Shown here one piece after another: positions 6,314 to 56,759 of a stretch of DNA of 64,000 bases (positions are counted from its first letter, which is position 1; every line of letters starts with the position of its first letter). The DNA comes from Candidatus Enteromonas sp. GTDB lineage: Bacteria; Bacillota_I; Bacilli_A; RFN20; CAG-826. Location of the stretch: the NCBI GenBank assembly GCA_050872145.1, contig JBNMGG010000005.1, positions 12,140 to 76,139 on the forward strand, in the 5' to 3' direction. The notes under the pieces are model-generated. The model did no database searches and was not told where the DNA came from. It saw only the letters and a list, made by a program, of their open reading frames with translations. The position numbers and the translations under genes were made by a program.

Positions 6314-6554
6314 TCTGTTTTCTGTTTCCTTTTCTGGGCTTTCGCCCGAACTCCAAGGAAGTCCTTGGTAGGGTATTCTAAACCCGCAGAAGCGGAAATT
6401 GATGGACTTTTCGTCAATCCTTGACCATAAATTGACACAAAGCGCTTCCAACTTTTTCCATGTTGGCCGACCTTGGGAATGAGTTTTAATCTATTGCATT
6501 AAGATTCGGATTTTTTGAAGGAAAACGCCCTTTTTTATGAAAAAAAGCCAGGGG

Positions 6555-31635: not shown

Positions 31636-33201
31636 CTAGCCGGCGATGCCGGTGGCGTATTTGACCACGTAGATGGCGATGAAGGCGGCCGCGCAGCAAG
31701 CAACGGCGATGTCGTCCTTCTTGAAACGCCCAGCGCAGAGGGTCATGACGGTGTAGGCAATGAAGCCCCAGGCGATGCCGTCGCTGATCGAATAGGAGAC
31801 GCACATGACGATGACGGTCAGGAAGCCGCTGCCGACAGCGACCCAATCCTTCCATTCAAGCCTCTCGAGGTTCTTGAACATGCAGATGCCGACGTAGACG
31901 AGGGCAAGGCCGGTGACGGCGCTGGAGGAGAAGGCGCTCAAAGCGGGGTAGATGACCAAGCTGAGGGCGAACAGAAGTCCGGTGACGACGGCGGCAAGGC
32001 CGGTGCGGGCCCCAGCGGCGACGCCGGTGGTGGATTCAACGAAGGAAGTGACGGTGGTGGTGCCGCAGATGGAGCCGAAGACGGTTCCGACCGCGTCGAC
32101 GATCATCGCGGGCTTGTCGTCCACGGTGATGCGGCCGGCATCGTCAACCATGCCAGCCCCGGCTTCAACGCCGACCAAGGTGCCGGTGGTGTCGAAGAAG
32201 TCAACGAAGAGAAGGGCGAAGGTGAAGGCATAGGCCATCGGCTGGGTGTAGACGTCGAAGCCCATGAAGGCCGCGCCGAAGAGCTTGCCGAAGTTGCCAA
32301 TCTGGGAGATGTGGTAGTTCTCGTTGTAGAACGGAGAGAAACCTTCGACTCCGCTGGAGCCCAAGGACCCGCAGATGATGGCCATGATGACGATGGTGAT
32401 GATGACGGAGAACGTGGTGATCCAGAAGAAGGCTTTGTTCTTCTGAGGCAAAGCGGAGAGAGCCAAGACGAGGATGATGCCAAGCAACCCGATGAGGACC
32501 GGCAGGCTCTTGAAGTTGCCAAGGCCGACCAAGGTGGCGCTGTTGTCGGCGATGATGCCCATGTTCTGGAAGCCGATGAAGCAGATGAAGAAGCCGATAC
32601 CCGCGGAAATCGCGAATTTCAAGGACTTCGGGATGTGGCGAACAATCCAGCCACGGAGCGGGGTGATGGAGATGATCAAGAAGAGAACGCCATCGACCAT
32701 GACTAAGCACATGGCTTGGGCGAAGTTCCAACCCATGCCGAGCATGACGTTGAAGGCGACTAAGGAGTTCAAGCCAAGGCCGGAAGCAAGGCCGACGGGG
32801 AGTTTGCCATAGAAGCCCATGAAGATGGTCGTGACGGCCGCGGAGATGGCGGTGGCGGCGAAGACGCCGGCGTAGACCTCCATCGCATTGGCCCAAGTAT
32901 CGCCGTAAAGAAGGATTTGACGGACCGCGTTGGCTCCTTCGCCGATGATGCGGACGTTAGCGGTGTTGCCGCCGGGGATGTTGGCCCAGTTGGTCGAAAG
33001 CATGCCCGCGTTCAGCGGAAGGATGTAGAACATCGCCAGGAAGATAACAAGTCCCCCGATGAGTTCCTTGAGGATCGAGGATCCCCTGCTGCTGATGCCG
33101 AAGTAGTTGTCGAGCCACCGGCCGAATCCGGTTTTCGGTGACCAACCATTCGGTTGCTTGCTCTCTGGTGAGGTTTCTACAGTGGATACTGTTTCAGCCA
33201 T
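31636..33201 (-). CDS. NCS2/AzgA-type purine (guanine/hypoxanthine/adenine) permease
   Basis: The ATG at 33201 is preceded by AAAGGAGG. WLDNYFGISSRGSSILKELIGGLVIFLAMFYILPLN is the typical AzgA/PbuG-type N-terminus. The protein is polytopic and lies downstream of a purine riboswitch. Confidence 0.85.
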   Translation of the reverse strand: MAETVSTVETSPESKQPNGWSPKTGFGRWLDNYFGISSRGSSILKELIGGLVIFLAMFYILPLNAGMLSTNWANIPGGNTANVRIIGEGANAVRQILLYGDTWANAMEVYAGVFAATAISAAVTTIFMGFYGKLPVGLASGLGLNSLVAFNVMLGMGWNFAQAMCLVMVDGVLFLIISITPLRGWIVRHIPKSLKFAISAGIGFFICFIGFQNMGIIADNSATLVGLGNFKSLPVLIGLLGIILVLALSALPQKNKAFFWITTFSVIITIVIMAIICGSLGSSGVEGFSPFYNENYHISQIGNFGKLFGAAFMGFDVYTQPMAYAFTFALLFVDFFDTTGTLVGVEAGAGMVDDAGRITVDDKPAMIVDAVGTVFGSICGTTTVTSFVESTTGVAAGARTGLAAVVTGLLFALSLVIYPALSAFSSSAVTGLALVYVGICMFKNLERLEWKDWVAVGSGFLTVIVMCVSYSISDGIAWGFIAYTVMTLCAGRFKKDDIAVACCAAAFIAIYVVKYATGIAG

Positions 33202-33338
33202 AGTCTTTTCCTCCTTTTGTTGATTAAGACTTTTTGTCGTTGGGGGTACTGTGGCTGGAGACGGAATTCCGAAGCAAAGAAGAAAAACGCAAAAATGAGA
33301 GCAGCTTCCGCGTGGTTTTCTTGTTTGCTTCCTTTCCT

Positions 33339-33408
33339 GGCTCGTAGTGCCCGGCTTTTTGGACCGGACGTAGAGACTGTCGGACCCTATCTCCGACATA
33401 TACGACCC
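33339..33408 (-). promoter_or_regulatory. purine riboswitch, guanine/hypoxanthine class
   Basis: The minus strand reads GGGUCGUAUAUGUCGGAGAUAGGGUCCGACAGUCUCUACGUCCGGUCCAAAAAGCCGGGCACUACGAGCC.
- P1 is UCGUA/UACGA.
- P2 is GUCGGA/UCCGAC.
- J2/3 is AGUCUCUAC (compare AGUUUCUAC in B. subtilis xpt).
- P3 is GUCCGG/CCGGGC.
- The J3/1 reading ACU places a C at the specificity position. Confidence 0.85.
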
Positions 33409-33544
33409 ATCGACGTTAAATAAATATAAGGCATTGCAACGGCTGAAAAAGATGAAAGCGGTTTATCGATATAAACTCATTTTTTGGGGTTCATCTAAGA
33501 GACGTCCATGATAAAATAACGGGCTAGAAAGAAGGTTGTTCCCT

Positions 33545-40531: not shown

Positions 40532-40637
40532 CAGCCTTCTTGAGTAGAAAGTTCGCGTTAAGTGCCTTGCGGATGGGAGGTCGCCCAAGGACGAAGGGGG
40601 AACCCGCGGTGGACTTTCGCTGCCGCTTGGTGGGCTG
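40532..40637 (+). promoter_or_regulatory. THF (tetrahydrofolate, folT-motif) riboswitch
   Basis: GAGUAGAAAGUUCGCGUUAAGUGCCUUGCGGAUGGGAGGUCGCCCAAGGACGAAGGGGGAACCCGCGGUGGACUUUCGCUGCCGC closely parallels the remembered Eubacterium siraeum THF aptamer (GAGUAGAUGAUUCGCGUUAAGUG...AUGGGAUGUCG...ACGAAGCGAGAGCGCGGUGAAUCAUUGCAUCCGC). It lies directly upstream of folT. Confidence 0.85.
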
Positions 40638-40665: not shown

Positions 40666-41235
40666 ATGGGGAATCACGATTCGATTGTCCGGCGCTTATG
40701 CGTGGATGGGATGCTTACGGGCCTATTTGTGGTGCTGACGCTAGTCAACATCAAAATCGGGCCGATGGTGAGGATCAGCTTCGGCTCTTTGCCGGTGGTC
40801 TTCGCCTCTTTGCTTTTCGGCCCATTGGATGGCTTCGCCGTGGCCTGCATCGGCGAATTCATCACCCAAACCATTAATTACGGAATCAGCCTCACGACGC
40901 CCCTTTGGGTTCTTATTCCGGGGGTGCGGGCGCTCATCATCGGCTTCGTTTCTTCTTTGTTCAAAAGGAAAGGCCAGGCCTTGGAAAAGCACAAAATCGC
41001 TTATTTTGCGACCCTTGTTTTCGCCTCTTTGGCCGTGACCGTTGCCAACACGGGGGTGTCCTTTTTGGACGCTTTCCTTTATGAATATCCCTTTTCCTTC
41101 GTTTGGATCACCAACCTCATTCGGGCTGGGATTTCCATTTTGACTTCCGTTGCGATTGGGCTGGTTTGCATCCCTTTGATCAAAGCGGTCGGCTCCCTTG
41201 TTTACCCCGGGAGCAAAACGCCCTACCAAAAATAG
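40666..41235 (+). CDS. folT: ECF transporter S component, folate family
   Basis: 189 aa with about 6 TMs, an N-terminus of the form VRRLCVDGMLTGLFVVLTLV.IKIG, and a THF riboswitch upstream. Confidence 0.75.
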   Translation: MGNHDSIVRRLCVDGMLTGLFVVLTLVNIKIGPMVRISFGSLPVVFASLLFGPLDGFAVACIGEFITQTINYGISLTTPLWVLIPGVRALIIGFVSSLFKRKGQALEKHKIAYFATLVFASLAVTVANTGVSFLDAFLYEYPFSFVWITNLIRAGISILTSVAIGLVCIPLIKAVGSLVYPGSKTPYQK

Positions 41236-45135: not shown

Positions 45136-46359
45136 TTATTGGTCTTCTGCGGCCTTTGACAAGGAATCGCGGGCTTTTTGCAGGATATTCTTCTTTTTCG
45201 TGGTCTTGTTGATTTTCCGGTAGGAGGCGTCGAGTTTTTCGGCGATCTTCCTTTCCTCCTCGCTGGCGGTGGGCCGCTTGGGGTCGGGCGGATTGACGAC
45301 GATTTGGTTGTAGGGGATGAGGATGTCGTTCTTCACGAACATCTGATAGAGCTCGCGATTTAAGTCGCGGGTGGTCTGGAAGCGGTTCTCCTCCAAACAA
45401 GTCGCGATGAAGAAATACTCGACTGCGGCATCGTCGAACCCTTTGATGCCCCGGTACGTTGGGCCGCTGATGAGGGCGGGGATTTTCTCTTTGATCTTCG
45501 GCAGTTCTCTCGCGATCACCGCTTCCACGTGCTCGACGTCTTCGTTGTAGGAAGCGCCGACGCTGATGGTGACCAAACTCGGCGCCCGGGTGAGGTTGGT
45601 GACGGTGGTGATAGTGGAGTTGTTGATGGCTTTGATGTTGCCCCCGTCGTCTTTGAGCTTCGTCGACTTCAAGCCGATGTCGGTGACCACCCCGCGGAAG
45701 CCATCGATGATGACGATGTCCCCAACGTCATAGAAATCATCAATCACGATGAAGAGCCCAGCGACGACGTCGTTGATCAAACTTTGGCATCCAAGGCCGA
45801 TGATCAAGGTCAGGATTCCCAGGCTCGCCACGATGGAGGCGACGTTGACCCCCCAAGCCGTGAGGATGACGGCGATGGTGATGAGGATCACGACATAGCG
45901 GATTAAGCTGCGGACCAAGGAACCGATCGTTTTGCTTCGTTTCCCCCTCCAAGTGAAAAGGCCGATGATGAAATTGGTGAGGAAGGTCACGAAGAAGGCC
46001 ACGGCGATGGAGGACAAAGTGACAAGCCACGCGTTCCCGGTGCTGACGATCTTCTCGCCCAAGAATTCCCAACCATTTCGATAGAGAGAACCGTCGCTTC
46101 TCACGCCGAAAGCGATTTTTGCGATTTCGTCCCCAAACAAATCACGCGCGTAGATCCAAAGGAAAATCCAAACCAAAACCGCAGCGAACAGAACACAGGA
46201 GACGATGAACGAGGTCTTTTGGCTCCGCGTTTTGCTATTCCACCAGGTCTTGTTCTCCTCGCGGATTTCTTTTGCTTCTTTCGCCTTCTTTTGGAGGACA
46301 GCCTCGTTTTTGCTTTCGAGTTCCTCCAAAGTCGGCTGCCTCATTTGCGGTTTTTTCAT
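45136..46359 (-). CDS. mechanosensitive ion channel (MscS family)
   Basis: The ATG at 46359 overlaps the upstream stop (ATGA). N-terminal TMs are followed by GCQSLINDVVAGLFIVIDDFYDVGDIVIIDGFRGVVTDIGLKSTKLKDDGGN, typical of the MscS beta-domain. Confidence 0.85.
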   Translation of the reverse strand: MKKPQMRQPTLEELESKNEAVLQKKAKEAKEIREENKTWWNSKTRSQKTSFIVSCVLFAAVLVWIFLWIYARDLFGDEIAKIAFGVRSDGSLYRNGWEFLGEKIVSTGNAWLVTLSSIAVAFFVTFLTNFIIGLFTWRGKRSKTIGSLVRSLIRYVVILITIAVILTAWGVNVASIVASLGILTLIIGLGCQSLINDVVAGLFIVIDDFYDVGDIVIIDGFRGVVTDIGLKSTKLKDDGGNIKAINNSTITTVTNLTRAPSLVTISVGASYNEDVEHVEAVIARELPKIKEKIPALISGPTYRGIKGFDDAAVEYFFIATCLEENRFQTTRDLNRELYQMFVKNDILIPYNQIVVNPPDPKRPTASEEERKIAEKLDASYRKINKTTKKKNILQKARDSLSKAAEDQ

Positions 46360-46847
46360 TCGATTTCTCCTTCTTCGCTGATGCGGAATAGGGTCTGGCT
46401 CGTTTCGTAGTCGAAGCCGTTGGTGACGTTCCATTTCCCTTCGTAGGCGATGCCCTTCTTGATGCCTTCAACCGTCCCTGCATAATCCTGCGGGGTCGAA
46501 ATGTCGAGGGTGAACAAAGGCTCGGACGCCTTATCGGCCTGAACCAAGAAGGTCACTTGGAATTTCCCTTCGTTTTGCAGGGAAAACGAGTAGGTTAAGA
46601 CTTCGTTTTCGTAGGTGAAGGAAGGGGAAGACAAGACGGGGGTCCCCTTAAGGAAGGGGTTGAAATTGGCTGCCCCCAACGCCCCTCCGGCCACCACGAG
46701 CAGCGAAGTGGCCGTCACGGCGATCTGAGTTGCCCTTTTCCCTTTGGCGTAGTGCGTGTCTTTGCCCACACCATAGACGGAAGAGGCCGAAAGCTCGTCG
46801 CTGGTGGCGATGTTGTCGGTGGATAAGTCGTTTCCTTCCATGCCCAT
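46356..46847 (-). CDS. hypothetical membrane-anchored protein
   Basis: 163 aa with a single TM (QIAVTATSLLVVAGGALGAA), then a beta-rich domain. It is translationally coupled to the MscS gene. Confidence 0.5.
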   Translation of the reverse strand: MGMEGNDLSTDNIATSDELSASSVYGVGKDTHYAKGKRATQIAVTATSLLVVAGGALGAANFNPFLKGTPVLSSPSFTYENEVLTYSFSLQNEGKFQVTFLVQADKASEPLFTLDISTPQDYAGTVEGIKKGIAYEGKWNVTNGFDYETSQTLFRISEEGEIE

Positions 46848-46919: not shown

Positions 46920-47570
46920 ATGGAACGCGTTGCACTGATTTTTGATTTGGACGGCACCCTTTGGGATTCTAGCAAGCAAGTGGCCGAATCCTGGAGCGAG
47001 GTCGGGAAGAAATACTTTGGTCCCTCTTTCTCCATCTCCGCGGATGAAGTCCGCGCCCAAATGGGGCTGATGATGGAGGAAATCCAGCAAAACATCGCCC
47101 ATTCTTCCCCCAATTATCAAAAAGGACTGCTTTGGGCCAAAGAAGCTTTCGATTACGAGATCGAATATCTAGGGACTCACCCGGGCGACAAATTCCCGGA
47201 GGAAGAAGAAACCTTGCTCGAACTTAAAAAGAGAGGGTACCTCCTCTTGATCATGTCCAATTGCCAAAAGGGCTATATCGAGGATTACTTGGCTTCCTTA
47301 AAGCATCCGGAGATTTTCTCGGGCCATCTTTGCTATGGGGATACCTTACTCCCCAAGCATGGATCGATCGCCAAGCTCGTGAAAGACTACCGTATCGACC
47401 GCGCCGCCTATGTGGGGGATACCGCCTCCGACGAAAAGCAGACTCGCCTCGCCGGATTGAAGTTCATCCATGCTTCTTACGGATTCGGCGCCTCCGTTTC
47501 CCCCGACGCCTCTTTGAAGCGCTTCTCCGACATGCTGGAAGCCTCGGAGAAGGTCTTGCCTTTGAAATGA
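46920..47570 (+). CDS. HAD-superfamily hydrolase
   Basis: ALIFDLDGTLWDS (motif I DxDGT), MSNC (motif II region) and YVGDTASD (motif IV). Confidence 0.85.
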   Translation: MERVALIFDLDGTLWDSSKQVAESWSEVGKKYFGPSFSISADEVRAQMGLMMEEIQQNIAHSSPNYQKGLLWAKEAFDYEIEYLGTHPGDKFPEEEETLLELKKRGYLLLIMSNCQKGYIEDYLASLKHPEIFSGHLCYGDTLLPKHGSIAKLVKDYRIDRAAYVGDTASDEKQTRLAGLKFIHASYGFGASVSPDASLKRFSDMLEASEKVLPLK

Positions 47571-47626
47571 ATTCTTGATGGGCTTCCGAGCTGAATTAAA
47601 ATGAAACCAGAAGGAGGAGACGCACC

Positions 47627-48031
47627 ATGGCAGAAGAGCAAAAGAAAAACGGTCTTCCCGAGAATCCGGACTTCGAAGTGAAAAATTACCTTTCCTCCGC
47701 CCAAATCGAAATCGTCAAAGGCGTGAAGAAAAGCGGCGCGGACGCGAGCGTTTTGGATTTGATCGACAATTTCGTTCGGGCCAATGGCAAATTGGATGCC
47801 AAATACGATGCCATGCTTCAAATCGCCAAAGACGCTTTAAACGTCGCGGGTCATCTCCCGGAATATCCTCAAACCGTCCAAGAAACGGCTCCCTTCCTCC
47901 TTTCGGTGGCGCTGCTGGATTTCTTCGTGCTCGTCGGAGTGGTGGACGAAGAGGAGGTACAGACGATGAAGGAAAGCGCCATAAAAGGCGCGGGATTCGG
48001 ATTCGACGATCCCAAAAACAACCAAGCGTGA
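47627..48031 (+). CDS. hypothetical protein, cassette gene 1
   Basis: 134 aa with GGAGGAG 8 nt upstream of the ATG. The N-terminal part is acidic and helical, and there is a hydrophobic segment APFLLSVALLDFFVLVGVV. No family recognised. Confidence 0.55.
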   Translation: MAEEQKKNGLPENPDFEVKNYLSSAQIEIVKGVKKSGADASVLDLIDNFVRANGKLDAKYDAMLQIAKDALNVAGHLPEYPQTVQETAPFLLSVALLDFFVLVGVVDEEEVQTMKESAIKGAGFGFDDPKNNQA

Positions 48032-48041
48032 GGTGCTGAAA

Positions 48042-48320
48042 ATGGGAAAAGCGAAAAAGGCTTGGGCAGAAAGAACGGAGAAAATCGAAGGGGACGTCCT
48101 TGATCTTTCAAAATCTCTCGATGAAAGCACCGCTTCGGAACTGAGCCTCCTCGCCCAATCCCAACAAAGGCAATTGGAGCAAATGACGCGCTCGGTTTCC
48201 ATTTACGAATCCTGCCAGGAAAAGCTGGGCGGGAAGGCCCTCGCGGAAATGGACGAAAAAGCCGCCACGTCCCTCGCCAATTGCTATTTTTCCCTTTTTG
48301 TAGGAGAGAAAGATGAATAA
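48042..48320 (+). CDS. hypothetical protein, cassette gene 2
   Basis: The ATG at 48042 lies 6 nt after GAGGTG, which spans the gene-1 stop. The product is 92 aa, charged and coiled-coil-like. The tracked GTG at 48033 is an alternative start. Confidence 0.5.
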   Translation: MGKAKKAWAERTEKIEGDVLDLSKSLDESTASELSLLAQSQQRQLEQMTRSVSIYESCQEKLGGKALAEMDEKAATSLANCYFSLFVGEKDE

Positions 48321-48492
48321 GCCCGCCATCGAAAAGGAAATCGCCGAGCGCGATGCCAAGATTGAAGAATCTTGTCTTGAACTGGCGAAGCGCCGGGCCG
48401 AGGAGCTTCGGAAAGAAGGGATTTCCCTCGGCGAGGTTTTCCTTTCCCAAACCAAAGAGTTGGGCCGCGCGTTCCAAAAGGAGGAGAAATGA
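48313..48492 (+). CDS. hypothetical small protein (59 aa), cassette gene 3; below the ORF-track cutoff
   Basis: My own translation is MNKPAIEKEIAERDAKIEESCLELAKRRAEELRKEGISLGEVFLSQTKELGRAFQKEEK. AGGAGAG lies upstream. The start overlaps the gene-2 stop by 8 nt, and the stop overlaps the first ATG of gene 4. Confidence 0.45.
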   Translation: MNKPAIEKEIAERDAKIEESCLELAKRRAEELRKEGISLGEVFLSQTKELGRAFQKEEK

Positions 48493-50345
48493 GAATGGCA
48501 GACATCGAAACGCCCCAAGTTCCTTCTCCTTTGCTCAGCGATCCCGAGACGCTGCCTCCTTTCCCAAATCCCTCCCTTCGCTTTCCGGAGACGGAAAAAG
48601 CCATTGGGGAATTGGAGAAGCAAAATAAGCAACTCCTCTTGCTGAAATCCCGCGTTTTGGAAACGAAACGAAAAGAGAAGGAAAACCGCGAGAATTGCGC
48701 AAAAATCATTTCCTTTTCGAATATTTGGGGCAAAACGGCCCTGCAAATTTCCTCTCTTTGCCATGAAAAGAAATACGCAAAAGCCGCTGAGTTGGCCGCT
48801 TCGCTACCCCTTAAAATCGAGGGTTCTCCCTATCCTTTAAAAGTCGAGAAAGAAGCTACGACCATCCGCCCTTGGCTGATCTGCCGATTAACCTCCCTTT
48901 CTTTCGAGGAAAAAGAAAAGCGCCATGAAAGCATTGGCAAGGACGAAGCCGAAAGGCATTATCAGCGTTGCCTCTCTTTGCCCGTAGGGTTAGAAGAGCA
49001 AAGCGAAGAGGAAAAGCTGATCGATGCCGCGAAAGGCTTTTTGTATTCTTCCTGCTCCAGCCTGCTTGAAAGCGGCGTCTCCGAGGTGAGCCTATTCTTG
49101 CCTCTCCTCCCGTTTTGGCGGATGGGCTTATCGGATAAAGTCGAAAGCGAAGCCACCAAGGCTAAGAAAGAGCGCTTCGGCCAACTTTTGCTTAACTGCT
49201 ACAACTCCTTGAGCGAAGTCTGCTTCAAAAAGAAGCGGGACTTGGAGTCGGCATTGACCCTTTTCCGCTTGAGGAACCTCTTCCCCAAAAGCGAAATCCG
49301 CCTCGCGCCTTTCCGCTACGCTTACGACGAGAAAGAGCTGAAACTCTATTTCTACGAATCAGAGGCCATCGAAAGCAAACCTGAGGAATTCGCGACCCGT
49401 GTATCGGAATTCGCTTCTTCCGTCTCTTCCCCCGATGACTTCTATTTCCTCGTATTGGCACACCTTTTGGCCCTGCAAGGCATGGAAAAAGACCGCTTCA
49501 ACGCGGTGGTCAAGGCAATCCGCCCCTTCTCCTTTGAACTGAAAATCGAATTGCTCGCCGCTTCAATCGCCTTGGGGATGGAACCCCTTCATATGCGCGC
49601 CGTGCTCGAGGAAATCGAAAGGACTCATCCCAAAAGAGGGAATTTGGAGAAATTGGGCAAGCCCCTTTTGTTTATCAAGGAGCATCTGAACGAAGCCTTG
49701 TTACTCCGCTTCAACCCCTTGCTGGAGGATTTGCTCCGCTCGCCCCACGCGCACAAAGTCGCCGAAAAAAGCAATGAGCTTGCTTTCACTTTGCTCTATG
49801 GCCACGCTCCGGAGCAATATCGCCCCCGCCTTGGCAGCAAAGCCAAACGCCCCAACATCCGCAGCTGGGGAAAAGGGACTTGGGCCTGCTATTTGGTCTT
49901 CGGGTTTTCCCTTCCCATTGTCGCCTGCTTGCTGTCTGGGGTCTTCATTTACCTTTATCGGGGCATTCCCGATCGCTATGCCTCTTACTGGATTCTGATT
50001 CCCTTCTTCTCTCTTTTGCTTTTCCTTTTCGCGACCGTCTCCGGGTGGTCCGGCAGGGATGAGCGCGGCGGGGCATATCTCCGCAGCGCCCTTTTGGGCG
50101 ATGCGATTTGGAAAGCCTGCTTAGCCGCTTCCTATTTCATCGTCCCCGCCTCGCTTCTTGGCTTCGCGCGGATTCGCTACGCACTGCTGATCGCCCCGAT
50201 TGCGGAGGGGCTTTTGGCTTTCTTCTACTGCAAACCCAGCAAGAAAACGGCCCTTTTGGATTATTTCCTCTTCGGGGCTCTCTTCGTCTCCGCCTTTTTG
50301 GCCACCGTGTTCATGGTGCTGGACATGATGTGGGGCCTCTTGTGA
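48489..50345 (+). CDS. hypothetical large membrane protein, cassette gene 4
   Basis: 618 aa. It has a Pro-rich N-terminus, a coiled-coil stretch (AIGELEKQNKQLLLLKSRVLETKRKEKEN), a long helical middle, and about 5 C-terminal TM segments. An alternative ATG at 48495 lies 9 nt after GGAGGAG. No family recognised. Confidence 0.55.
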   Translation: MRMADIETPQVPSPLLSDPETLPPFPNPSLRFPETEKAIGELEKQNKQLLLLKSRVLETKRKEKENRENCAKIISFSNIWGKTALQISSLCHEKKYAKAAELAASLPLKIEGSPYPLKVEKEATTIRPWLICRLTSLSFEEKEKRHESIGKDEAERHYQRCLSLPVGLEEQSEEEKLIDAAKGFLYSSCSSLLESGVSEVSLFLPLLPFWRMGLSDKVESEATKAKKERFGQLLLNCYNSLSEVCFKKKRDLESALTLFRLRNLFPKSEIRLAPFRYAYDEKELKLYFYESEAIESKPEEFATRVSEFASSVSSPDDFYFLVLAHLLALQGMEKDRFNAVVKAIRPFSFELKIELLAASIALGMEPLHMRAVLEEIERTHPKRGNLEKLGKPLLFIKEHLNEALLLRFNPLLEDLLRSPHAHKVAEKSNELAFTLLYGHAPEQYRPRLGSKAKRPNIRSWGKGTWACYLVFGFSLPIVACLLSGVFIYLYRGIPDRYASYWILIPFFSLLLFLFATVSGWSGRDERGGAYLRSALLGDAIWKACLAASYFIVPASLLGFARIRYALLIAPIAEGLLAFFYCKPSKKTALLDYFLFGALFVSAFLATVFMVLDMMWGLL

Positions 50346-50348
50346 GAT

Positions 50349-50675
50349 TTAATTGTCGAATTCGTCGTACTTTTTGCTGGATCCCTTGGATTTGCTAACG
50401 GGGTATTTCTCTTCGTTTTTCTTGTACTTATCCAAAACGATCTGGTCCACGTCAAAGCCATACCGATCGGCGAGCATGTAGCAGTAGGAGAGGACGTCGG
50501 CGAGCTCTTCTTTCAGCCTGTCCACGGATTTGGCCTCATGCCCCCATTGGAACAGTTCTAAGAGCTCCCCGGATTCGATGGCGATTGACTTGGCAAGATT
50601 CTCACCCGTGTGGAACTGATCCCAATCCCTCTCCTTGTTCATTTTCCGGATTTCTTCGATGACTTTCTGATTCAT
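50349..50675 (-). CDS. MazG-like all-alpha nucleotide pyrophosphohydrolase (small, YpjD-type)
   Basis: The ATG at 50675 gives MNQKVIEEIRKMNKERDWDQFHTGENLAKSIAIESGELLELFQW....LKEELADVLSYCYMLA. This is the EExxE/D-type MazG core. Length 108 aa. Confidence 0.75.
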   Translation of the reverse strand: MNQKVIEEIRKMNKERDWDQFHTGENLAKSIAIESGELLELFQWGHEAKSVDRLKEELADVLSYCYMLADRYGFDVDQIVLDKYKKNEEKYPVSKSKGSSKKYDEFDN

Positions 50676-50819
50676 AGGCGCCTCTTTTTCTCTTTTCTTC
50701 GGCCTATTTTGCTGCCAAGGGGAACGCCTCTCAAGGACCCTAAGGGCCAAAGGAAGGCGTTTCTACTATGTAGAAAAGATGGCGGCGGGTTTTCCGCTGT
50801 GCCATAATGTCGAAGTTTC

Positions 50820-52226
50820 ATGGACAATCTTTTCGACAGCGTAAATGAAAAAATGTTCTCCGTCCTCACTTCGGAGGACAAACGGGGCAATTTCGAATTG
50901 CTCCGCATCCTTTACCACCTCTCCGAATCCATCGATTACGGGGACTTCATCCCCAAGGAAGAGGCGGTTGGCGCCCTTTCGGCGTTTTTGGAAGACCACT
51001 CCGGAGAAGTGAAAGACGACGGGGAAGGCGGGGACATCACCCGAAGAAGCGCCCGCGACAAAGCCCAGGTCAAATTGCGCCAGTTCCGAAATTTCGGTTG
51101 GATCAACGAAGAGTCTTTGGGCGGGTACAACGCCCTGGTTTCCTTCACCTCCGCGGGCAAGGCCACGATGGAGTTTTTGGTCAACTACACCGAACGGGCC
51201 GAAAAACCGTTGGAATACACCGGGTACGTCTACGTCATCTATTCCACCCTGCAAAGCTTCGACTTAAGCAAATCGACCGCGATCCTTCAGCAGGTTTACC
51301 GTTTGACGAAGGAACTCATGAACTCCCTTTCCCGCCTTTCCAGCGAGATCAAGGAATTCCTCGACACCCTCACCGACAACCCCGACTTGTCCCCGCGTGA
51401 GATCCTCTCCACTTTGGTGGGCAAATATCAAAGCCAGGTCATCCTCCGCGTTTTCAATAACCTCCGCATGAGGGACAACCCCTCCCGTTATTCTTCCCAG
51501 ATTATCAATATCCTCCGCGATTTGCTCCGCGATCACATGGAGGAGCTCGTCGCCAACTCGGTTATGACCGAGGACGTCAAAGATTTGACGAAAGAACGTT
51601 ATGAGGCCATCGAAGGCGAAATCCGCGACCAAGCCGGATACGTGATTTCCTCTTTCGAGGGCATTGAGAAATACCTCGATGTCTTGGACGCCCAAAACGC
51701 GAAGTACCTTTCCTCGGCGAAGGCCAGGCTTGACTTCCTCCTTACGTCCACCAAAGACGTCACCGGGAGAATCAACGATTGTCTCAAGGCCATCGCCGAT
51801 GTCCCCGACGATTATCCTTTCGAGAATTTGATCCGCATCGAATCCTCAGGGATTCTGGACGCCAGAAGCCTTTCTAGCCCCCGCTTCCAAAGGGAGAAGC
51901 CGGTGGAAGTGGAAGTTCCGGTCCCAGAAGGGGATGCCTCCGAAGTCGAGAAGGGATTGGACCGCATCTTCGGGGAAGACCCCTATTCCAAAGAGAACAT
52001 CAACGCGGCAGCCCTTTCCTTTTTGGGGGAGAAGGAGCAAATGCCCTCCATCGACATTCCAACGCAAGAGCAAGGCGACCTCATCATGCTGATGATGATG
52101 CAACTCATCTCGCAGGATCGGAAGCTCGATTACAGTTTGGACTTCAAGGAAGACCGCTACGTCCGAATCGGGCATGAACTAGAAGAATTCCAACTGAAGA
52201 AAAAGGAGAAACGCCATGGCAGATAA
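50820..52226 (+). CDS. jetA: JetA/MksF-like (kleisin-type) subunit of an SMC-like complex
   Basis: First gene of a three-gene overlapping cluster, 468 aa and helical. The call rests on size, position and operon partners. I cannot confirm the family from motifs. Confidence 0.5.
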   Translation: MDNLFDSVNEKMFSVLTSEDKRGNFELLRILYHLSESIDYGDFIPKEEAVGALSAFLEDHSGEVKDDGEGGDITRRSARDKAQVKLRQFRNFGWINEESLGGYNALVSFTSAGKATMEFLVNYTERAEKPLEYTGYVYVIYSTLQSFDLSKSTAILQQVYRLTKELMNSLSRLSSEIKEFLDTLTDNPDLSPREILSTLVGKYQSQVILRVFNNLRMRDNPSRYSSQIINILRDLLRDHMEELVANSVMTEDVKDLTKERYEAIEGEIRDQAGYVISSFEGIEKYLDVLDAQNAKYLSSAKARLDFLLTSTKDVTGRINDCLKAIADVPDDYPFENLIRIESSGILDARSLSSPRFQREKPVEVEVPVPEGDASEVEKGLDRIFGEDPYSKENINAAALSFLGEKEQMPSIDIPTQEQGDLIMLMMMQLISQDRKLDYSLDFKEDRYVRIGHELEEFQLKKKEKRHGR

Positions 52227-52854
52227 AAACGAAATCGCCGAATCCTTCGTGGACGAATATCGGCGCATGGGGGATGGTGAGAAGCAGGAATTTGCCCGCG
52301 TCGTTTCGAAGTTCCTGAACGAAACCTTCATTCTGAAGAACAAGAAAATGGACGCCTACGATTTCTACTTCGTCCAAGAAAGGAAATCGCTGTTCACTTC
52401 TTATTTTGCTTTGACCGATTACGTTTTGGAGTTCGACCAAGAACGCGGCTTCTTCTACCCCTCCACCGAAGAAGACCGCTCCCGCGTTCGCCTCAACAAA
52501 TTCGAGACGGTCCTCCTTTTGATTCTCCGTTTGAAATACTACGAGAATTCCAAAACCGCTTCCTCGCCGGAAGACAACGCCATCGGCGTCGAAGAGCTCG
52601 TGGAGAAGGTGAACCAAACCAACATCTTCCATCCCATCAAAAGGATGACCGAATACGATCTCGCCTTGAAAAAGCTCCGCCGGAGCAAAATCCTCGATTT
52701 CAAAGGCAGCAAGCTCGAGGCTTCCACCCGCATGGTCATTCTGCCCACCATTTTGGTCGTAATGGGCCAAAGCGACATCGATTTGATCGCTGCTGAACTG
52801 GCGGCCTATTCCAAGAAAGAAGAAGGAGGGAAGAGCGATGCAGAAGCTGATTAA
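52216..52854 (+). CDS. jetB: JetB/MksE-like (DUF4194/MukE-like) subunit
   Basis: 212 aa, overlapping jetA by 11 nt, with AAGGAG upstream. LFTSYFALTDYVLEFDQERGFFYPSTEE and RLNKFETVLLLILRLKY fit the DUF4194 pattern as I remember it. The tail is acidic. Confidence 0.55.
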   Translation: MADKNEIAESFVDEYRRMGDGEKQEFARVVSKFLNETFILKNKKMDAYDFYFVQERKSLFTSYFALTDYVLEFDQERGFFYPSTEEDRSRVRLNKFETVLLLILRLKYYENSKTASSPEDNAIGVEELVEKVNQTNIFHPIKRMTEYDLALKKLRRSKILDFKGSKLEASTRMVILPTILVVMGQSDIDLIAAELAAYSKKEEGGKSDAEAD

Positions 52855-55800
52855 AATCAAGCTCATCAACTGGCAGAGCTTTTACGACAACACCGTCTCC
52901 GTGTCTGGGAACATCCTCGTCACGGGCGAAAACGGGGCGGGGAAATCCTCCATGCTCGACGCGCTTTATTTCGTTTTGGCCGGAGGGTCCAGCAAATTCA
53001 ACCTCGCCGCCACCGACGAAACCTCGCGCTCGGTCGAGACCTACATGCGTGGCACTATCGGCGCCGAGGGCAGGGAATGCCTCCGCCCGGGGCCAAACCT
53101 CATCTCCCACGTCGCCTTGGAATTCGCAAACCCCAACGGAGAATCCTTGGTTTTGGGATGCGCTTTGGAAATCCGCGACGCCGCCCCGAAGGCGGACCAA
53201 TCCTTTTACTTGATCCGCCAAGGCCACATCCAAGACGATCTTTTCTTCACTTTGGACGGGGACAAGAAAAAGGCTTTGAACGCCAAATTGCTCCAAGAAA
53301 GGGCCAACGCCCTCTTTGGGGAGAGAAGTTTTGTTCCCGTGAAAGGGACGAAGACCGAGATCAAATCGCAAATCGCGCGTGCTTTGGGGCTCGCCAGCAG
53401 CAAATACTACGAGCTCCTCCCCAAGGCCATCGCTTTCAAGCCGATCCGCGAGGTCAATGACTTCGTCTTCGACTTCCTTTTGCCCGAGCACAACGTCGAC
53501 ATCGCCTCCATCCGCGCGTCCATCCATTCCTACATGGAAATCCGCAAGGACGTCGAAATCGACGAAAAGAAGAAGGAACAGCTGGAATCCATCGTCTCCA
53601 TGAATTCGGACTATGAGGACAAATCCCTGCAGAAATCCCTTCTTCAAGCGTTAAGCGTCCGCAAAGGTAAGGCTTCCACGGAGAAGAAGATCGCCTCTTT
53701 GGAAGCCACCATCAAGACCAACGCTTCTCTCATCGGGGACGAGGCCGACAAGCGCAGCGTCATCGTCGCCCAAATCGAGGAAGTCCAGCGCAAACTCTTC
53801 GCCCTCTCGGGGCAAGATTGGTACAAAGCGTTGGAAGAGAACCAACGCAACCTCCTCCAGGCCCAGAAATCCGTCAACGATTTGATGCCCTTGCTCTCGC
53901 GCTTCAACCGCGCCATTTTGGAGGAGAGCGAACTGGCCCGCTCCCTTTCCCTCAAAGGCGATTTTTCCTCCTACATCAAATCCGAGGACTTCGCCGGCTT
54001 CCAAACCGCACTCTCCAGTTATGACGAGGCCTTTGAAAGCCGCCGGAACGCCCTCAACGAATCGATGGCCCTTCGCTGGGGCGAGCTCAATGAGGCCAAG
54101 CAAAGGCAGCAGGGCCTCCAAGTCAAACTCGACGCCCTCCGCCGTGGCCTTCCTCAATACGATTACAACGCCACAACCCTCATGAAAATCATCCACCGGG
54201 GATTCGTGGAAGAGGAAGGGCACGACATCGAAGTCCATCCTTTCTGCGAGCTCATCGACATCGCCCCCGGGGAAGAAAGCTGGAGGAATGCGGTGGAAGG
54301 GTATTTGAATACCCGCCGCTTCGACCTCTTCGTCAAAGAGGAATATTACGACAAAGCCCTTTCCCTTTACGAAAGAAACAAAGGCCCTTACCACATCCAC
54401 TCCGTCGGCTTGGTCAATGTCGCTAAACTCGACGACCGGCAGGCCCGCCCCAATTCCTTGGCCACCAAAGTCGTGACCAATGACCCCGACGCCCAACGCT
54501 ACGTCAATTACGTTTTGGGCGACATCATCTGCGTCGATTCCGAGCAGGAGCTCAAATACTACGACGCCTCCATCACCAAAACCGTGATGGTCTACCGCAA
54601 CAAAGCTTCCCGCGCCACCCGCCCGGAAATTTACGCGACCCCCTATATCGGCAAAGGCGCTTACTCCGCCCAACTCGCCTCTTTGCAGAAAGACCTGCAA
54701 AAAGCCAACGAAGAAGTCACTGAACTCAGCCAAGGCGTCGCCGAAGTTCGCAACAAGCTCAACAAAGCCTCCGATTCCAAGAGGAAGCAGCTTTTGGATT
54801 CGCCCAACTATTGGCGACAATACGCCGACCTCCTCGCTAGGCAAAACGCTTTGTCGATCGAAAGGAAGAAACTCGAGGAAGCCTCCAAAGAAGGCGGCCA
54901 CGGGTCCGGGGAGGATTATGCGAAGGAGAAAGCGGAGCTCGAAAAGGCCCGCGACGCCTCCTTGGAACTGCAAACCCGCCTGCAAGCCGAATCCGATCTG
55001 GCCGCGCGCCAGATCCGCGATCTCCAGGAAAGTTTGAAGGAATCCTCCGAGGAGCTTTCCCTGAAAACCGCCGATCCCAGGGTCGCCGAGAAACTCGAGG
55101 AATTCGCCAAGAAGAACTCCTCCCTCTCCCCGGCGGAAATCGCTAAGCAAATCGCTTCTCTGACCCCGCAGATCTCCTCTCTTGAAAGGGCCATCATCTC
55201 CGCGATGGCGACCTACATCAACGAGTTCCGCTTCGACTCCGCTGCCTCGATGGAGAACATCTCCGACTTCCTCACCGAGCACAGCAAAGTCGTTGGACGC
55301 GAGCTGGGGCAATTCAAAAAGGACCTCGAAAGGGCCCAAGCCGAATGCGCCAACGCCTTCAAGGAAAACTACATCGCCCAGATTCGCAAGCACATCCTCG
55401 ACGAGAAGGCCAACATCCGCAAACTGAACAAAGTCCTCGCGGACAAGCCCTTTGGCAACGATGGGGAAGTTTACCAATTCGTCATCACCCGCAGCAAAGA
55501 CCCCTCCTTCGGCCCTTATTACGACATCTTCACTTCCAAAGACGAAATCTCCTCCAAAGACCTCTTCCTCGATTCCTTGGACTCCAACGATTCGGCTTTG
55601 ATGAAGGACCTCTTCAACCGCCTCACCGCCACCAGTGGGGACGAAAAGCAAGAGAAGCTCCTCCGCCTCTACACCGATTACCGGATGTTCATGAACTATG
55701 ACATCCAAATCACCAACCGGGAAGGCGAGATTTCCTTCTTCTCCAAAATCTCCCGCGGCAAATCCGGGGGTGAGACCCAAACCCCGTTCTACGTCATCAT

Positions 55801-56068
55801 TGCCGCCTCCTTCGACCAAATCGTCCACGAAGGAAGCTTCGACAAAGAGGCGGGCTGCATCGTCATCCTCGACGAGGCCTTCAACAAGATGGACGCCTCT
55901 CGTATCTCGGCGACCATGTCTTACTTCAATGATTTGTCGATTCAGTTGATCATCGGCTTGCCGAGCAACAACGCGAAGATCTTGATGCCTTACGTCGATA
56001 CGACGATCGGCATCGTCAAAAGCAGGGACCGCAGCTACATCCGTACGGATACCAAGTTGGCTCAGTGA
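52838..56068 (+). CDS. jetC: JetC/MksB/MukB-like SMC-type ATPase
   Basis: 1076 aa.
- N-terminus: IKLINWQSFYDNTVSVSGNILVTGENGAGKSSMLDALYFVLAGGSSKFNLAATDETSRSVETYMRG (Walker A plus the FN.AA...R...Y.RG pattern).
- Middle: long E/K/L/Q-rich coiled-coil region.
- C-terminus: SRGKSGGETQTPFYVIIAASF and CIVILDEAFNKMD (signature-like and Walker B). Confidence 0.8.
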   Translation: MQKLIKIKLINWQSFYDNTVSVSGNILVTGENGAGKSSMLDALYFVLAGGSSKFNLAATDETSRSVETYMRGTIGAEGRECLRPGPNLISHVALEFANPNGESLVLGCALEIRDAAPKADQSFYLIRQGHIQDDLFFTLDGDKKKALNAKLLQERANALFGERSFVPVKGTKTEIKSQIARALGLASSKYYELLPKAIAFKPIREVNDFVFDFLLPEHNVDIASIRASIHSYMEIRKDVEIDEKKKEQLESIVSMNSDYEDKSLQKSLLQALSVRKGKASTEKKIASLEATIKTNASLIGDEADKRSVIVAQIEEVQRKLFALSGQDWYKALEENQRNLLQAQKSVNDLMPLLSRFNRAILEESELARSLSLKGDFSSYIKSEDFAGFQTALSSYDEAFESRRNALNESMALRWGELNEAKQRQQGLQVKLDALRRGLPQYDYNATTLMKIIHRGFVEEEGHDIEVHPFCELIDIAPGEESWRNAVEGYLNTRRFDLFVKEEYYDKALSLYERNKGPYHIHSVGLVNVAKLDDRQARPNSLATKVVTNDPDAQRYVNYVLGDIICVDSEQELKYYDASITKTVMVYRNKASRATRPEIYATPYIGKGAYSAQLASLQKDLQKANEEVTELSQGVAEVRNKLNKASDSKRKQLLDSPNYWRQYADLLARQNALSIERKKLEEASKEGGHGSGEDYAKEKAELEKARDASLELQTRLQAESDLAARQIRDLQESLKESSEELSLKTADPRVAEKLEEFAKKNSSLSPAEIAKQIASLTPQISSLERAIISAMATYINEFRFDSAASMENISDFLTEHSKVVGRELGQFKKDLERAQAECANAFKENYIAQIRKHILDEKANIRKLNKVLADKPFGNDGEVYQFVITRSKDPSFGPYYDIFTSKDEISSKDLFLDSLDSNDSALMKDLFNRLTATSGDEKQEKLLRLYTDYRMFMNYDIQITNREGEISFFSKISRGKSGGETQTPFYVIIAASFDQIVHEGSFDKEAGCIVILDEAFNKMDASRISATMSYFNDLSIQLIIGLPSNNAKILMPYVDTTIGIVKSRDRSYIRTDTKLAQ

Positions 56069-56108: not shown

Positions 56109-56759
56109 TTATTCTTTTTCCGTCAGTTCCTGACCCTTTTTGCCATATCGGATCAAGACGTAGCAAATCAGCCAAAGAAGCACCAAGGCCCCGACGGCGT
56201 AAAGAAGGGTGATCCACCAGGAATTCACATGGAAGTCCAAGAAAGGGTAGACGGGTTTGACAATCCCACAGGCGGAGAGGGGGATCATCGCCGCGGCATA
56301 GGCCAAGACGGGGATGAAACCGAATCCGCCGTCGGTGTAGCGATAATCGGATTTTCCCAAGAAGAAGTAGTGGTTGGCTAAGGCGAGAAGCGGGCAAAGC
56401 AGATGCAGGAAGGGAAACGCCCCCGCGTAAAGAAGCCCCGGGCCCTGCAGCCACACCAAAAGCAAGCAAACGGTGAGGAGGGTGATGGTCTCGCAGACCG
56501 TTCCCACGTAATGGAGCACGTAGGCCCAGCGGGGAAGCTTCGTCTTCTTGGCGAGGCAAACGGTTTCCATGACCAATAGAATCAAGGCGACCAGCGCGTA
56601 GAAGGCGTTGCCCAAAATGGTGAAATAAAGGTAGGAGTCCCCTTGCTGAAGGAAGGAAAGGCCCAATCCTAGGCCCTCCCCCAAAATGGCGGCGATTAGA
56701 ATCGCGATGGAGATTCCTCTTTTCGTTTGAATGCTCATGTGGGCATTATATTCCAACAT
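56109..56759 (-). CDS. hypothetical polytopic membrane protein
   Basis: About 6 TM segments. It is convergent with jetC. The start is either 56759 or the ATG at 56738 (MSIQTK). Confidence 0.5.
   Translation of the reverse strand: MLEYNAHMSIQTKRGISIAILIAAILGEGLGLGLSFLQQGDSYLYFTILGNAFYALVALILLVMETVCLAKKTKLPRWAYVLHYVGTVCETITLLTVCLLLVWLQGPGLLYAGAFPFLHLLCPLLALANHYFFLGKSDYRYTDGGFGFIPVLAYAAAMIPLSACGIVKPVYPFLDFHVNSWWITLLYAVGALVLLWLICYVLIRYGKKGQELTEKE

Follow-up and report, generated by a model that had tools for sequence, protein, structure and literature searches.

A conserved four-gene cassette of orphan proteins, possibly specifying a membrane-anchored scaffold, in uncultured gut and rumen Bacillota

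Results

The window analysed here, a 64,000-nt stretch of the genome of Candidatus Enteromonas sp. (GenBank assembly GCA_050872145.1, contig JBNMGG010000005.1, positions 12,140 to 76,139 of the forward strand), carries at 47627-50345 four consecutive genes on the + strand, here called g1 to g4 (Table 1), which an original prediction made from the letters of the DNA had described as a translationally coupled cassette of unrecognisable proteins. The sequence and the open reading frame (ORF) table agree on the four same-strand ORFs, and independent gene callers returned genes of 134, 92, 59 and 618 aa as well, from two Logan contigs carrying an identical g4. The Shine-Dalgarno (SD) sequence of g1 is AAGGAGGAG, with the start codon 7 nt further on and a leader of 25 nt in the window. 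The stop codon of g1 (TGA, 48029-48031) lies within GTGAGGTG, and direct reading bears out that the GAGGTG of g2 spans this stop as its SD, 6 nt 5' of the g2 ATG; an alternative in-frame start of g2, GTG 48033, would give 95 aa. Equally legible is the overlap of 8 nt that had been described between g2 and g3 (ATGAATAA), where the SD of g3, AGGAG, sits inside the g2 coding sequence, 6 nt 5' of the g3 start, and the final codons of g2 double as the SD and start codon of g3. Both proposed starts of g4 are present: ATG 48489 shares ATGA with the g3 stop, ATG 48495 begins 2 nt past that stop, and GGAGGAG (48480-48486) stands 8 nt from the latter and only 2 nt from the former. In an alignment of 15 g4 orthologs, Met3 of the longer product is invariant and coincides with Met1 of the relatives, and ATG 48495 is for this reason the likelier start. 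Screening against Rfam revealed no RNA element within or beside the cassette.

Our searches placed none of g1-g4 in a known family. Pfam, NCBIfam, PADLOC and PHROGs yielded no family for g1-g4, and when 44 g4 and 13 g1 relatives were scanned singly, no consistent family emerged, none being matched by more than two members. Profile searches of the PDB with the alignments of g1, g2, g3 and g4 produced coiled-coil compositional matches only, the g3 profile matching coronavirus HR1 and the g4 N-terminus influenza HA2 and designed bundles, and the g1 model had zero fold matches in the PDB by Foldseek. PADLOC-DB 2.0 left g2, g3 and g4 unmatched at E <= 0.1. Searches directed at particular candidates were also negative: neither g1-g4 nor the ORFs following JetC matched the JetD/MksG nuclease in Pfam, NCBIfam or PADLOC; g1-g3 had no Pfam match, neither to WXG100 (PF06013) of type VII secretion systems nor to a Lap-type domain of LXG partner proteins, and the locus tables held no FtsK/EssC-type gene; g2 and g3 had no match to ZapA or ZapB in Pfam or NCBIfam. 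Two weak matches were set aside as spurious, one to LptF in the PDB profile search (E 0.009) and one, evidently so, of g1 to a type I specificity-subunit model in PADLOC (E 0.014). The earlier statement that no family or catalytic motif could be recognised thus withstood Pfam, NCBIfam, PADLOC, PHROGs, PDB sequence searches and Foldseek alike, and g1-g4 constitute four orphan protein families, new by their distance from known ones.

Relatives of the cassette were collected from GTDB, each species being represented by one genome (loci L001-L010), and from a metagenome scan with a 9-sequence subset that included distant g4 members (three loci, L013-L015); counts of the gene array refer to the 13 independent loci with upstream sequence, L013 ending just upstream of g4. 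Among 5.8 billion proteins, a word-indexed search turned up only 15 clusters related to g4 (~615-619 aa, 41-84% identity), and HMMER, run exhaustively on 1.84 billion representatives, yielded 41 g4 representatives, nearly all full length (~590-640 aa), all with E < 1e-10 and with zero twilight matches. The g4 family is closed. No relative was found among 2.9 million viral contigs. The order g1-g2-g3-g4 was kept in 13/13 independent loci, and positional orthologs in L001-L010 measured 127-134 aa for g1, 90-93 aa for g2 and 56-65 aa for g3. The same four-gene order recurred in L014 (GC content 45%) and L015 (GC content 59%), though g4 there is only ~25-27% identical to that of the window, and across all loci sharing the array g4 identity falls to about 20-25%; the arrangement is far beyond chance. 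Pairwise, unsaturated ratios of nonsynonymous to synonymous substitution rates (dN/dS) were 0.08-0.11 for g1, 0.14-0.17 for g2, 0.09-0.20 for g3 and 0.08-0.10 for g4; wider ranges, 0.08-0.24 for g1 and 0.02-0.16 for g4, were also recorded. The four genes, g3 with its 59 aa among them, all code for proteins and are under purifying selection. The questions left by the original prediction on these points can be answered: the four genes occur together in 13/13 loci, g3 is kept as an ORF, and no characterised homolog has come to light. All occurrences of the cassette fall within one group of uncultured gut and rumen Firmicutes (Bacillota), to which the four protein families are restricted. Metagenome-assembled genomes with near-identical syntenic loci carry the labels Bacillales, Firmicutes, Lachnospiraceae, Erysipelotrichaceae, Bacteroidales, Paludibacteraceae and Parasutterella; these public labels of the L001-L010 bins contradict one another and are unreliable.

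Comparison of the junctions separated the cassette into a strictly coupled part and a looser one. The overlap of the g2 stop and g3 start is 4 or 8 nt in 13/13 independent loci, the g3/g4 junction lies between -11 and +2 nt in every locus, and g2-g3-g4 display the conserved stop-start overlap or abutment and internal SD sequences that distinguish a coupled operon. The g1-g2 spacer is short in the window, L002, L014 and L015 (8-15 nt; 8-10 nt in the window and L002) and measures 49-68 nt in L001 and L003-L010. Since this junction is loose in most relatives, the universally coupled unit is g2-g3-g4, with g1 as a constant upstream partner. The tight coupling originally ascribed to the whole cassette accordingly holds for g2-g3-g4 in all loci and fails for g1-g2 in most relatives, and the stoichiometric co-production of a membrane-anchored complex is reasonably drawn from the conserved g2-g3-g4 overlaps. 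The long g1-g2 spacers hold a nearly invariant element, CTTGAACG-N-TGTCAAAAT (e.g., L005 9419-9481), which reads as a -35 box, a 17-nt spacer and an extended -10 box and is missing from the window and L002; its form suggests an internal promoter for g2-g4 in these relatives. A pattern match to a -10 box of the TAAAAT/GATAAT type was found just 5' of g1 in every related locus, and its position directly before g1 suggests that the cassette forms a separate transcription unit rather than a continuation of the HAD gene upstream. In L005-L010 and L015 this -10-like box lies ~6-11 nt before the g1 ATG with no SD visible, and the g1 mRNA may be leaderless there. Between g4 and the following PhoH gene of L016, only weak terminator and promoter pattern matches were seen.

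The three small proteins are not all of one kind. Both g2 and g3 are short, acidic, helical and heptad-like, in line with the original description of genes 1-3 as small, charged and coiled-coil-like, a description that suits g1 less well: g1 is acidic (pI 4.5) and was modelled by AlphaFold2 (AF2) as a five-helix bundle with disordered tails (predicted local distance difference test, pLDDT, 72), and its helix at aa 86-109 equals a membrane helix in hydrophobicity on the Kyte-Doolittle scale. Invariant in g1 across the 13 loci are Y21, L22, Q26, N53, D57, G104 and A134, and the C-terminal residue is Ala in 13/13 loci, usually within N-x-A. The C-terminal tails of g2 (LGDxxE) and g3 (acidic/Gly) were considered as peptides that might bind tetratricopeptide repeats (TPRs) and were dropped, because the same codons encode the SD and start of the next gene and their conservation cannot be read as a protein motif; the N-x-A tail of g1 is the sole tail free of this confound.

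The AF2 model of g4, built from the ortholog alignment (mean pLDDT 78, predicted TM-score (pTM) 0.52), agrees with the build read earlier from the letters, namely a Pro-rich and coiled-coil N-terminus, a helical cytoplasmic region and about five C-terminal transmembrane (TM) helices (Table 1, in which the domain layout follows the 618-aa numbering; motif residues follow the 616-aa numbering). Residues 96-436 are modelled entirely as helix pairs, and their best Foldseek matches are TPR, half-a-TPR (HAT) and solenoid proteins at low TM-scores; against the PDB and BFVD the g4 model retrieved generic proteins of these kinds only (E >= 7e-3, query TM-score <= ~0.2). No TPR, Sel1 or HAT repeat model was matched by more than one of the 44 g4 members at E <= 0.1. 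Clusters of K and R precede TM1 (7 K/R) and occupy the TM2-TM3 and TM4-TM5 loops; the positive-inside rule would place the large N-terminal domain and the TM2-TM3 loop in the cytoplasm, giving an inferred N-in/C-out topology. The most conserved segment of the family is that of DLLRSPHAHKVAEKS (family consensus DLLRSPxAHKxxxKS), followed by GRDERGS, and among 44 sequences of 18-84% identity K425, G447, D522 and E523 are invariant and R415 and S416 nearly so. The solenoid and the N-terminal helix are the least conserved parts. LLRSPxAHK and GRDERGS probably both lie at the cytoplasmic face of the membrane, and the functional centre of the family appears to be this charged cluster instead of the solenoid or the N-terminal helix.

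The cassette lies in ordinary chromosome. The window encodes PFL, phosphoribosyl pyrophosphate synthetase (Prs), GuaA, GuaB, TrpRS, MgsA, DegV, DUF1846 and energy-coupling factor (ECF) and ATP-binding cassette transporters, a content that fits an anaerobic member of the Bacillota, and the GC content is flat across the cassette. The upstream flank of the window and L001-L004 consists of an MscS-type channel gene, a gene for a 163-aa membrane protein and the HAD-family hydrolase; HAD also precedes the cassette in the distant L015 and does not in L005-L010 or L014, and MscS with the 163-aa homolog also flanks the cassette in the distant L014. The MscS gene (45136-46434, - strand) overlaps that of the 163-aa protein (46356-46847, - strand), which is bitopic and without a family. 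A different upstream flank is found in L005-L010 and L016/L017, comprising a 63-65-aa repeat protein, UDP-glucose dehydrogenase and BacA, with an Abi_2 gene and an MNT/HepT toxin-antitoxin pair a few kb upstream in L016/L017. The 63-65-aa protein replaces HAD upstream of g1 in L005, L006, L008, L010 and L016/L017 (e.g., L016 9660-9857); it carries the repeat …GYI.TKPNGDKV.T.F.G..LGYYRK…TD..GR.LYYGDM and has no Pfam match on record.

Downstream, the stop codon of the convergent MazG-like gene begins 3 nt past the g4 stop, just as the ORF positions had earlier indicated; only the window and L001-L005 have MazG. The distance from g4 to the start of JetA is 475 nt, and the JetABC-like cluster reported at about 0.5 kb is real, with strong matches to the type I Wadjet models. 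JetD was absent from the window by Pfam, NCBIfam and PADLOC, and the unassigned large ORFs had no Pfam match. The succession JetA-JetB-JetC followed by a 216-aa membrane protein is kept in 10/10 genome loci. A PhoH-like ATPase (256-265 aa) stands directly upstream of JetA in L003-L010 and is missing from the entire window, L001 and L002; in L006-L010 and L016/L017, g1-g4, PhoH and JetABC form eight co-directional genes with spacers of ~66-68 nt. After g4, the distant loci carry RnfC (L014) or an exonuclease-like ORF (L015), neither similar to JetA. Co-occurrence with jetABC and mazG, raised in the original prediction, is accordingly partial: JetABC is next door only in the clade of the window (not in L014 or L015), and MazG in some relatives. 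Nor are the three tRNA genes a few kb away, as had been supposed; the actual distance is 8.7-10.5 kb. Identity across loci amounted to 81-98% for JetA/B/C, 70-93% for MscS, 64-87% for HAD and 39-84% for g4, and g4 and its neighbours rank the loci in the same order of divergence, a congruence that speaks against horizontal transfer and fits vertical co-inheritance in which g1-g4 evolve fast and JetABC very slowly. The JetABC of the window, L003-L010 and L016/L017 has the appearance of an essential MksBEF-type condensin rather than of a defence system.

Several further features were recorded. The PhoH-like P-loop ATPase (L016 12797-13579) is 67-87% conserved, and our literature search found no paper tying PhoH to JetABC, Wadjet or Mks, and nothing relevant on MksBEF with a Firmicutes membrane protein. 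The 216-aa protein that follows JetC (window 56109-56759, - strand) is polytopic and without a family; in the distant L013 its homolog (2009-2535, + strand) is the gene immediately following g4, and this membrane protein may be an ancestral neighbour of the cassette. Elsewhere in the window, a purine riboswitch (33325-33425, - strand) precedes a gene of the xanthine/uracil permease family (31636-33399), and a tetrahydrofolate riboswitch (40538-40630, + strand) precedes an ECF transporter S component (40666-41235). At the far end of the window, a 434-aa Schlafen/AlbA_2-domain protein (1259-2563, + strand; ~45 kb from the cassette) and a protein of 738 aa that ends in an Endonuclease I domain (4235-6451, - strand) are possibly nucleic-acid-directed accessory genes.

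Table 1. Features of the g1-g4 cassette and its immediate neighbours in the window
Feature	Position in window	Strand	Length or residues	Basis or remark
g1	47627-48031	+	134 aa	ORF table and raw sequence
g2	48042-48320	+	92 aa	ORF table and raw sequence
g3	48313-48492	+	59 aa	Read from sequence; ORF in all loci
g4	48495-50345	+	616 aa	618 aa from ATG 48489
g4, disordered Pro-rich N-terminus			aa 1-30	AF2
g4, 60-residue helix			aa 33-92	AF2
g4, TPR-like alpha-solenoid, paired helices			aa 96-436	AF2
g4, motif DLLRSPHAHKVAEKS	49728-49772	+	aa 412-426	Last cytoplasmic helix before membrane domain
g4, low-confidence linker			aa 442-463	AF2
g4, C-terminal membrane domain, five predicted TM helices	49878-50342	+	aa 464-617	AF2 and hydropathy
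g4, motif GRDERGG (family GRDERGS)	50052-50072	+	aa 520-526	TM2-TM3 loop
Promoter-like site, HAD stop to g1	47575-47602	+		TTGATG-16 nt-TAAAAT; consensus scan, pattern only
HAD-family hydrolase	46920-47570	+		Directly upstream of g1
MazG-like gene	50349-50750	-		Convergent; gene callers: 108 aa, 50349-50675
JetA	50820-52226	+		Strong type I Wadjet match
JetB	52216-52854	+		Strong type I Wadjet match
JetC	52838-56068	+		Strong type I Wadjet match

Discussion

The interpretation that we favour, at a little less than an even chance, is that g1-g4 form an autonomous, vertically inherited, lineage-restricted operon for a heteromeric scaffold complex that is anchored in the membrane and serves a housekeeping role in envelope or cell-cycle organisation at the cytoplasmic membrane face; complex formation, the scaffold role and the housekeeping function are what we infer from the data above. 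Transcription would begin at a putative promoter just 5' of g1, and coupled re-initiation over the overlapping stop and start codons would hold g2, g3 and g4 at fixed ratios. The heptad helices of g2 and g3 could bundle with the 60-residue N-terminal helix of g4, and the g4 solenoid could offer a docking surface, possibly for the g1 bundle or its N-x-A C-terminal tail. The five TM helices of g4 would anchor the assembly, and R415, S416 and K425 (LLRSPxAHK) together with D522 and E523 (GRDERGS) would make up a functional site at the membrane surface. A housekeeping role is likelier than a defensive one because the synteny with housekeeping genes is stable and reaches distant relatives, dN/dS is low and composition is native, and because g2-g4 were unmatched by defence models and no viral copies were found. 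The original prediction had deemed a housekeeping role and defence equally possible; the housekeeping flanks uphold the former, which is the better of the two options and not merely their equal.

Several observations weigh against this interpretation. No homolog connects any of the four proteins with a process, and the case for a housekeeping scaffold is one of context and architecture. AF2 has little confidence in precisely the conserved linker and loop of g4, and the K, D and E that are invariant at the membrane face could serve catalysis or transport instead of a scaffold. The g4 proteins are 39-84% identical where JetC is 81-96% identical, and such faster evolution would also suit a conflict-related role. 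Finally, the cassette is contiguous and co-directional with PhoH-JetABC in at least eight loci, which makes a tie to the structural maintenance of chromosomes (SMC) complex conceivable.

Of the other explanations, the most credible, in our view unlikely, takes g4 for a membrane enzyme, transporter or channel whose active or gating site would be the invariant juxtamembrane K/D/E cluster and whose target might be a lipid or a precursor of the envelope, with g1-g3 as regulators and the HAD phosphatase or MscS as a functional neighbour. It would account for the exceptional conservation of LLRSPxAHKxxxKS and GRDERGS, with K425, D522 and E523 invariant in 44 sequences, for the HAD hydrolase directly upstream in the clade of the window and in the distant L015, and for the MscS gene adjoining in the window and L014. 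Yet g4 has no sequence or fold similarity to any enzyme or transporter family, its membrane domain is small (~150 aa, five helices), HAD is not beside the cassette in L005-L010 or L014, and charged conserved loops are also common at protein-protein interfaces. A second candidate, which we also rate as unlikely and place just behind the first, is the cassette as an accessory of the JetD-less, MksBEF-like JetABC complex and the PhoH-like ATPase, that is, a membrane tether or regulator replacing JetD. The single-strand succession g1-g4-PhoH-JetABC with its ~66-68 nt spacers in L006-L010 and L016/L017, the retention of downstream JetABC in 10/10 genome loci while the upstream flank changes, and the absence of JetD from the window all speak for it, and small coiled-coil proteins with a membrane anchor would suit a tether. 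Against this, the sole two distant loci with downstream sequence have RnfC (L014) or an exonuclease-like ORF (L015) in place of JetA, a convergent MazG gene divides the two units in the window, where PhoH is absent, and the rates of g4 and JetC lie far apart. All adjacency loci, moreover, belong to one clade, and shared ancestry therefore explains the adjacency to JetABC. Slightly more doubtful is the fuller form of the same idea, in which g1-g4, PhoH and JetABC would together constitute a membrane-tethered, JetD-less SMC system not recognised before, with g1-g4 as the arm that anchors or regulates it. In this Firmicutes lineage the system would have become a chromosome organiser of exceptional conservation, probably essential, from which the lineage of the window later lost PhoH while gaining MazG at the junction.

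Least probable is that the cassette is a new anti-phage or anti-plasmid module of the abortive-infection type, with g4 as the membrane effector in a defence neighbourhood. Such a module would sit naturally beside a type I Wadjet-like JetABC, with Abi_2 and MNT/HepT a few kb upstream in L016/L017 and a Schlafen/AlbA_2 gene in the window, though ~45 kb off, and the fast divergence of g1-g4 would be expected of it. PADLOC nevertheless gave no meaningful match (the g1 match was spurious; g2-g4 had none), and the cassette occupies a stable chromosomal site among housekeeping genes, in L014 and L015 as well. Its divergence ranks are congruent with those of its neighbours, its dN/dS is low, its GC content is native and no viral copy exists among the contigs searched, while JetABC, lacking JetD and numbering among the most conserved genes of the region, makes a better condensin than a defence island. 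The suggestion that JetABC, MazG or the tRNAs mark the cassette as an accessory or defence module is thus not borne out, given the housekeeping flanks, the divergence ranks shared with the neighbours and the lack of a viral copy.

Comparison with known systems

By predicted architecture, the nearest known kind is the membrane-associated TPR or solenoid scaffold. LapB joins a helical-repeat platform to a membrane anchor, and g4, like scaffolds of the LapB/YciM and BamD type, is predicted to pair a stack of helix pairs with a membrane anchor; its Foldseek matches include APC/C Cut9, SART3 HAT and BamD (9n2d_F, TMt 0.44). In contrast to the LapB/BamD type, g4 would be anchored by five C-terminal helices, a domain bearing invariant motifs of its own, instead of by a single N-terminal helix, and it has no rubredoxin or other known partner domain. 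The heptad bundle formers (viral HR1/HA2, SNARE-like proteins and designed coiled coils) share with g3 and the N-terminal helix of g4 a heptad-type composition, to which the weak matches amount; these are short, coiled-coil only and not homologous, and the best E-value came from a segment-repeating chain.

Proximity invites comparison with Wadjet, JetABCD (MksBEFG), since the cassette lies 475 nt from a type I JetABC and is co-directional with it in several relatives. However, g1-g4 are unlike JetD/MksG, a Toprim/topoisomerase-VI-like nuclease with a DUF3322-type N-terminal domain whose gene adjoins jetABC, or any other Wadjet component, the adjacency is clade-specific and JetD is absent. In Escherichia coli, MatP-ZapB-ZapA links MukBEF-organised DNA to the envelope, and a loose analogy may be drawn with small coiled-coil proteins of ~60-110 aa that accompany a MukBEF-type condensin and an envelope-bound structure, although the cassette bears no similarity to ZapA or ZapB (Pfam) and includes no DNA-binding protein, and nothing observed points to the divisome.

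On present evidence, g1-g4 remain a conserved operon of hypothetical proteins, a well-delimited target rather than a demonstrated mechanism. If the complex is real, it would comprise four new protein families with no counterpart in curated libraries or solved structures, and if our reading is true, it would represent lineage-specific cell biology (envelope, division or chromosome-membrane organisation) that current annotation does not see. Set beside Wadjet, the clade-specific co-directional array with PhoH and a JetD-less JetABC offers a lead on how a Wadjet-type SMC system might be re-used for housekeeping.

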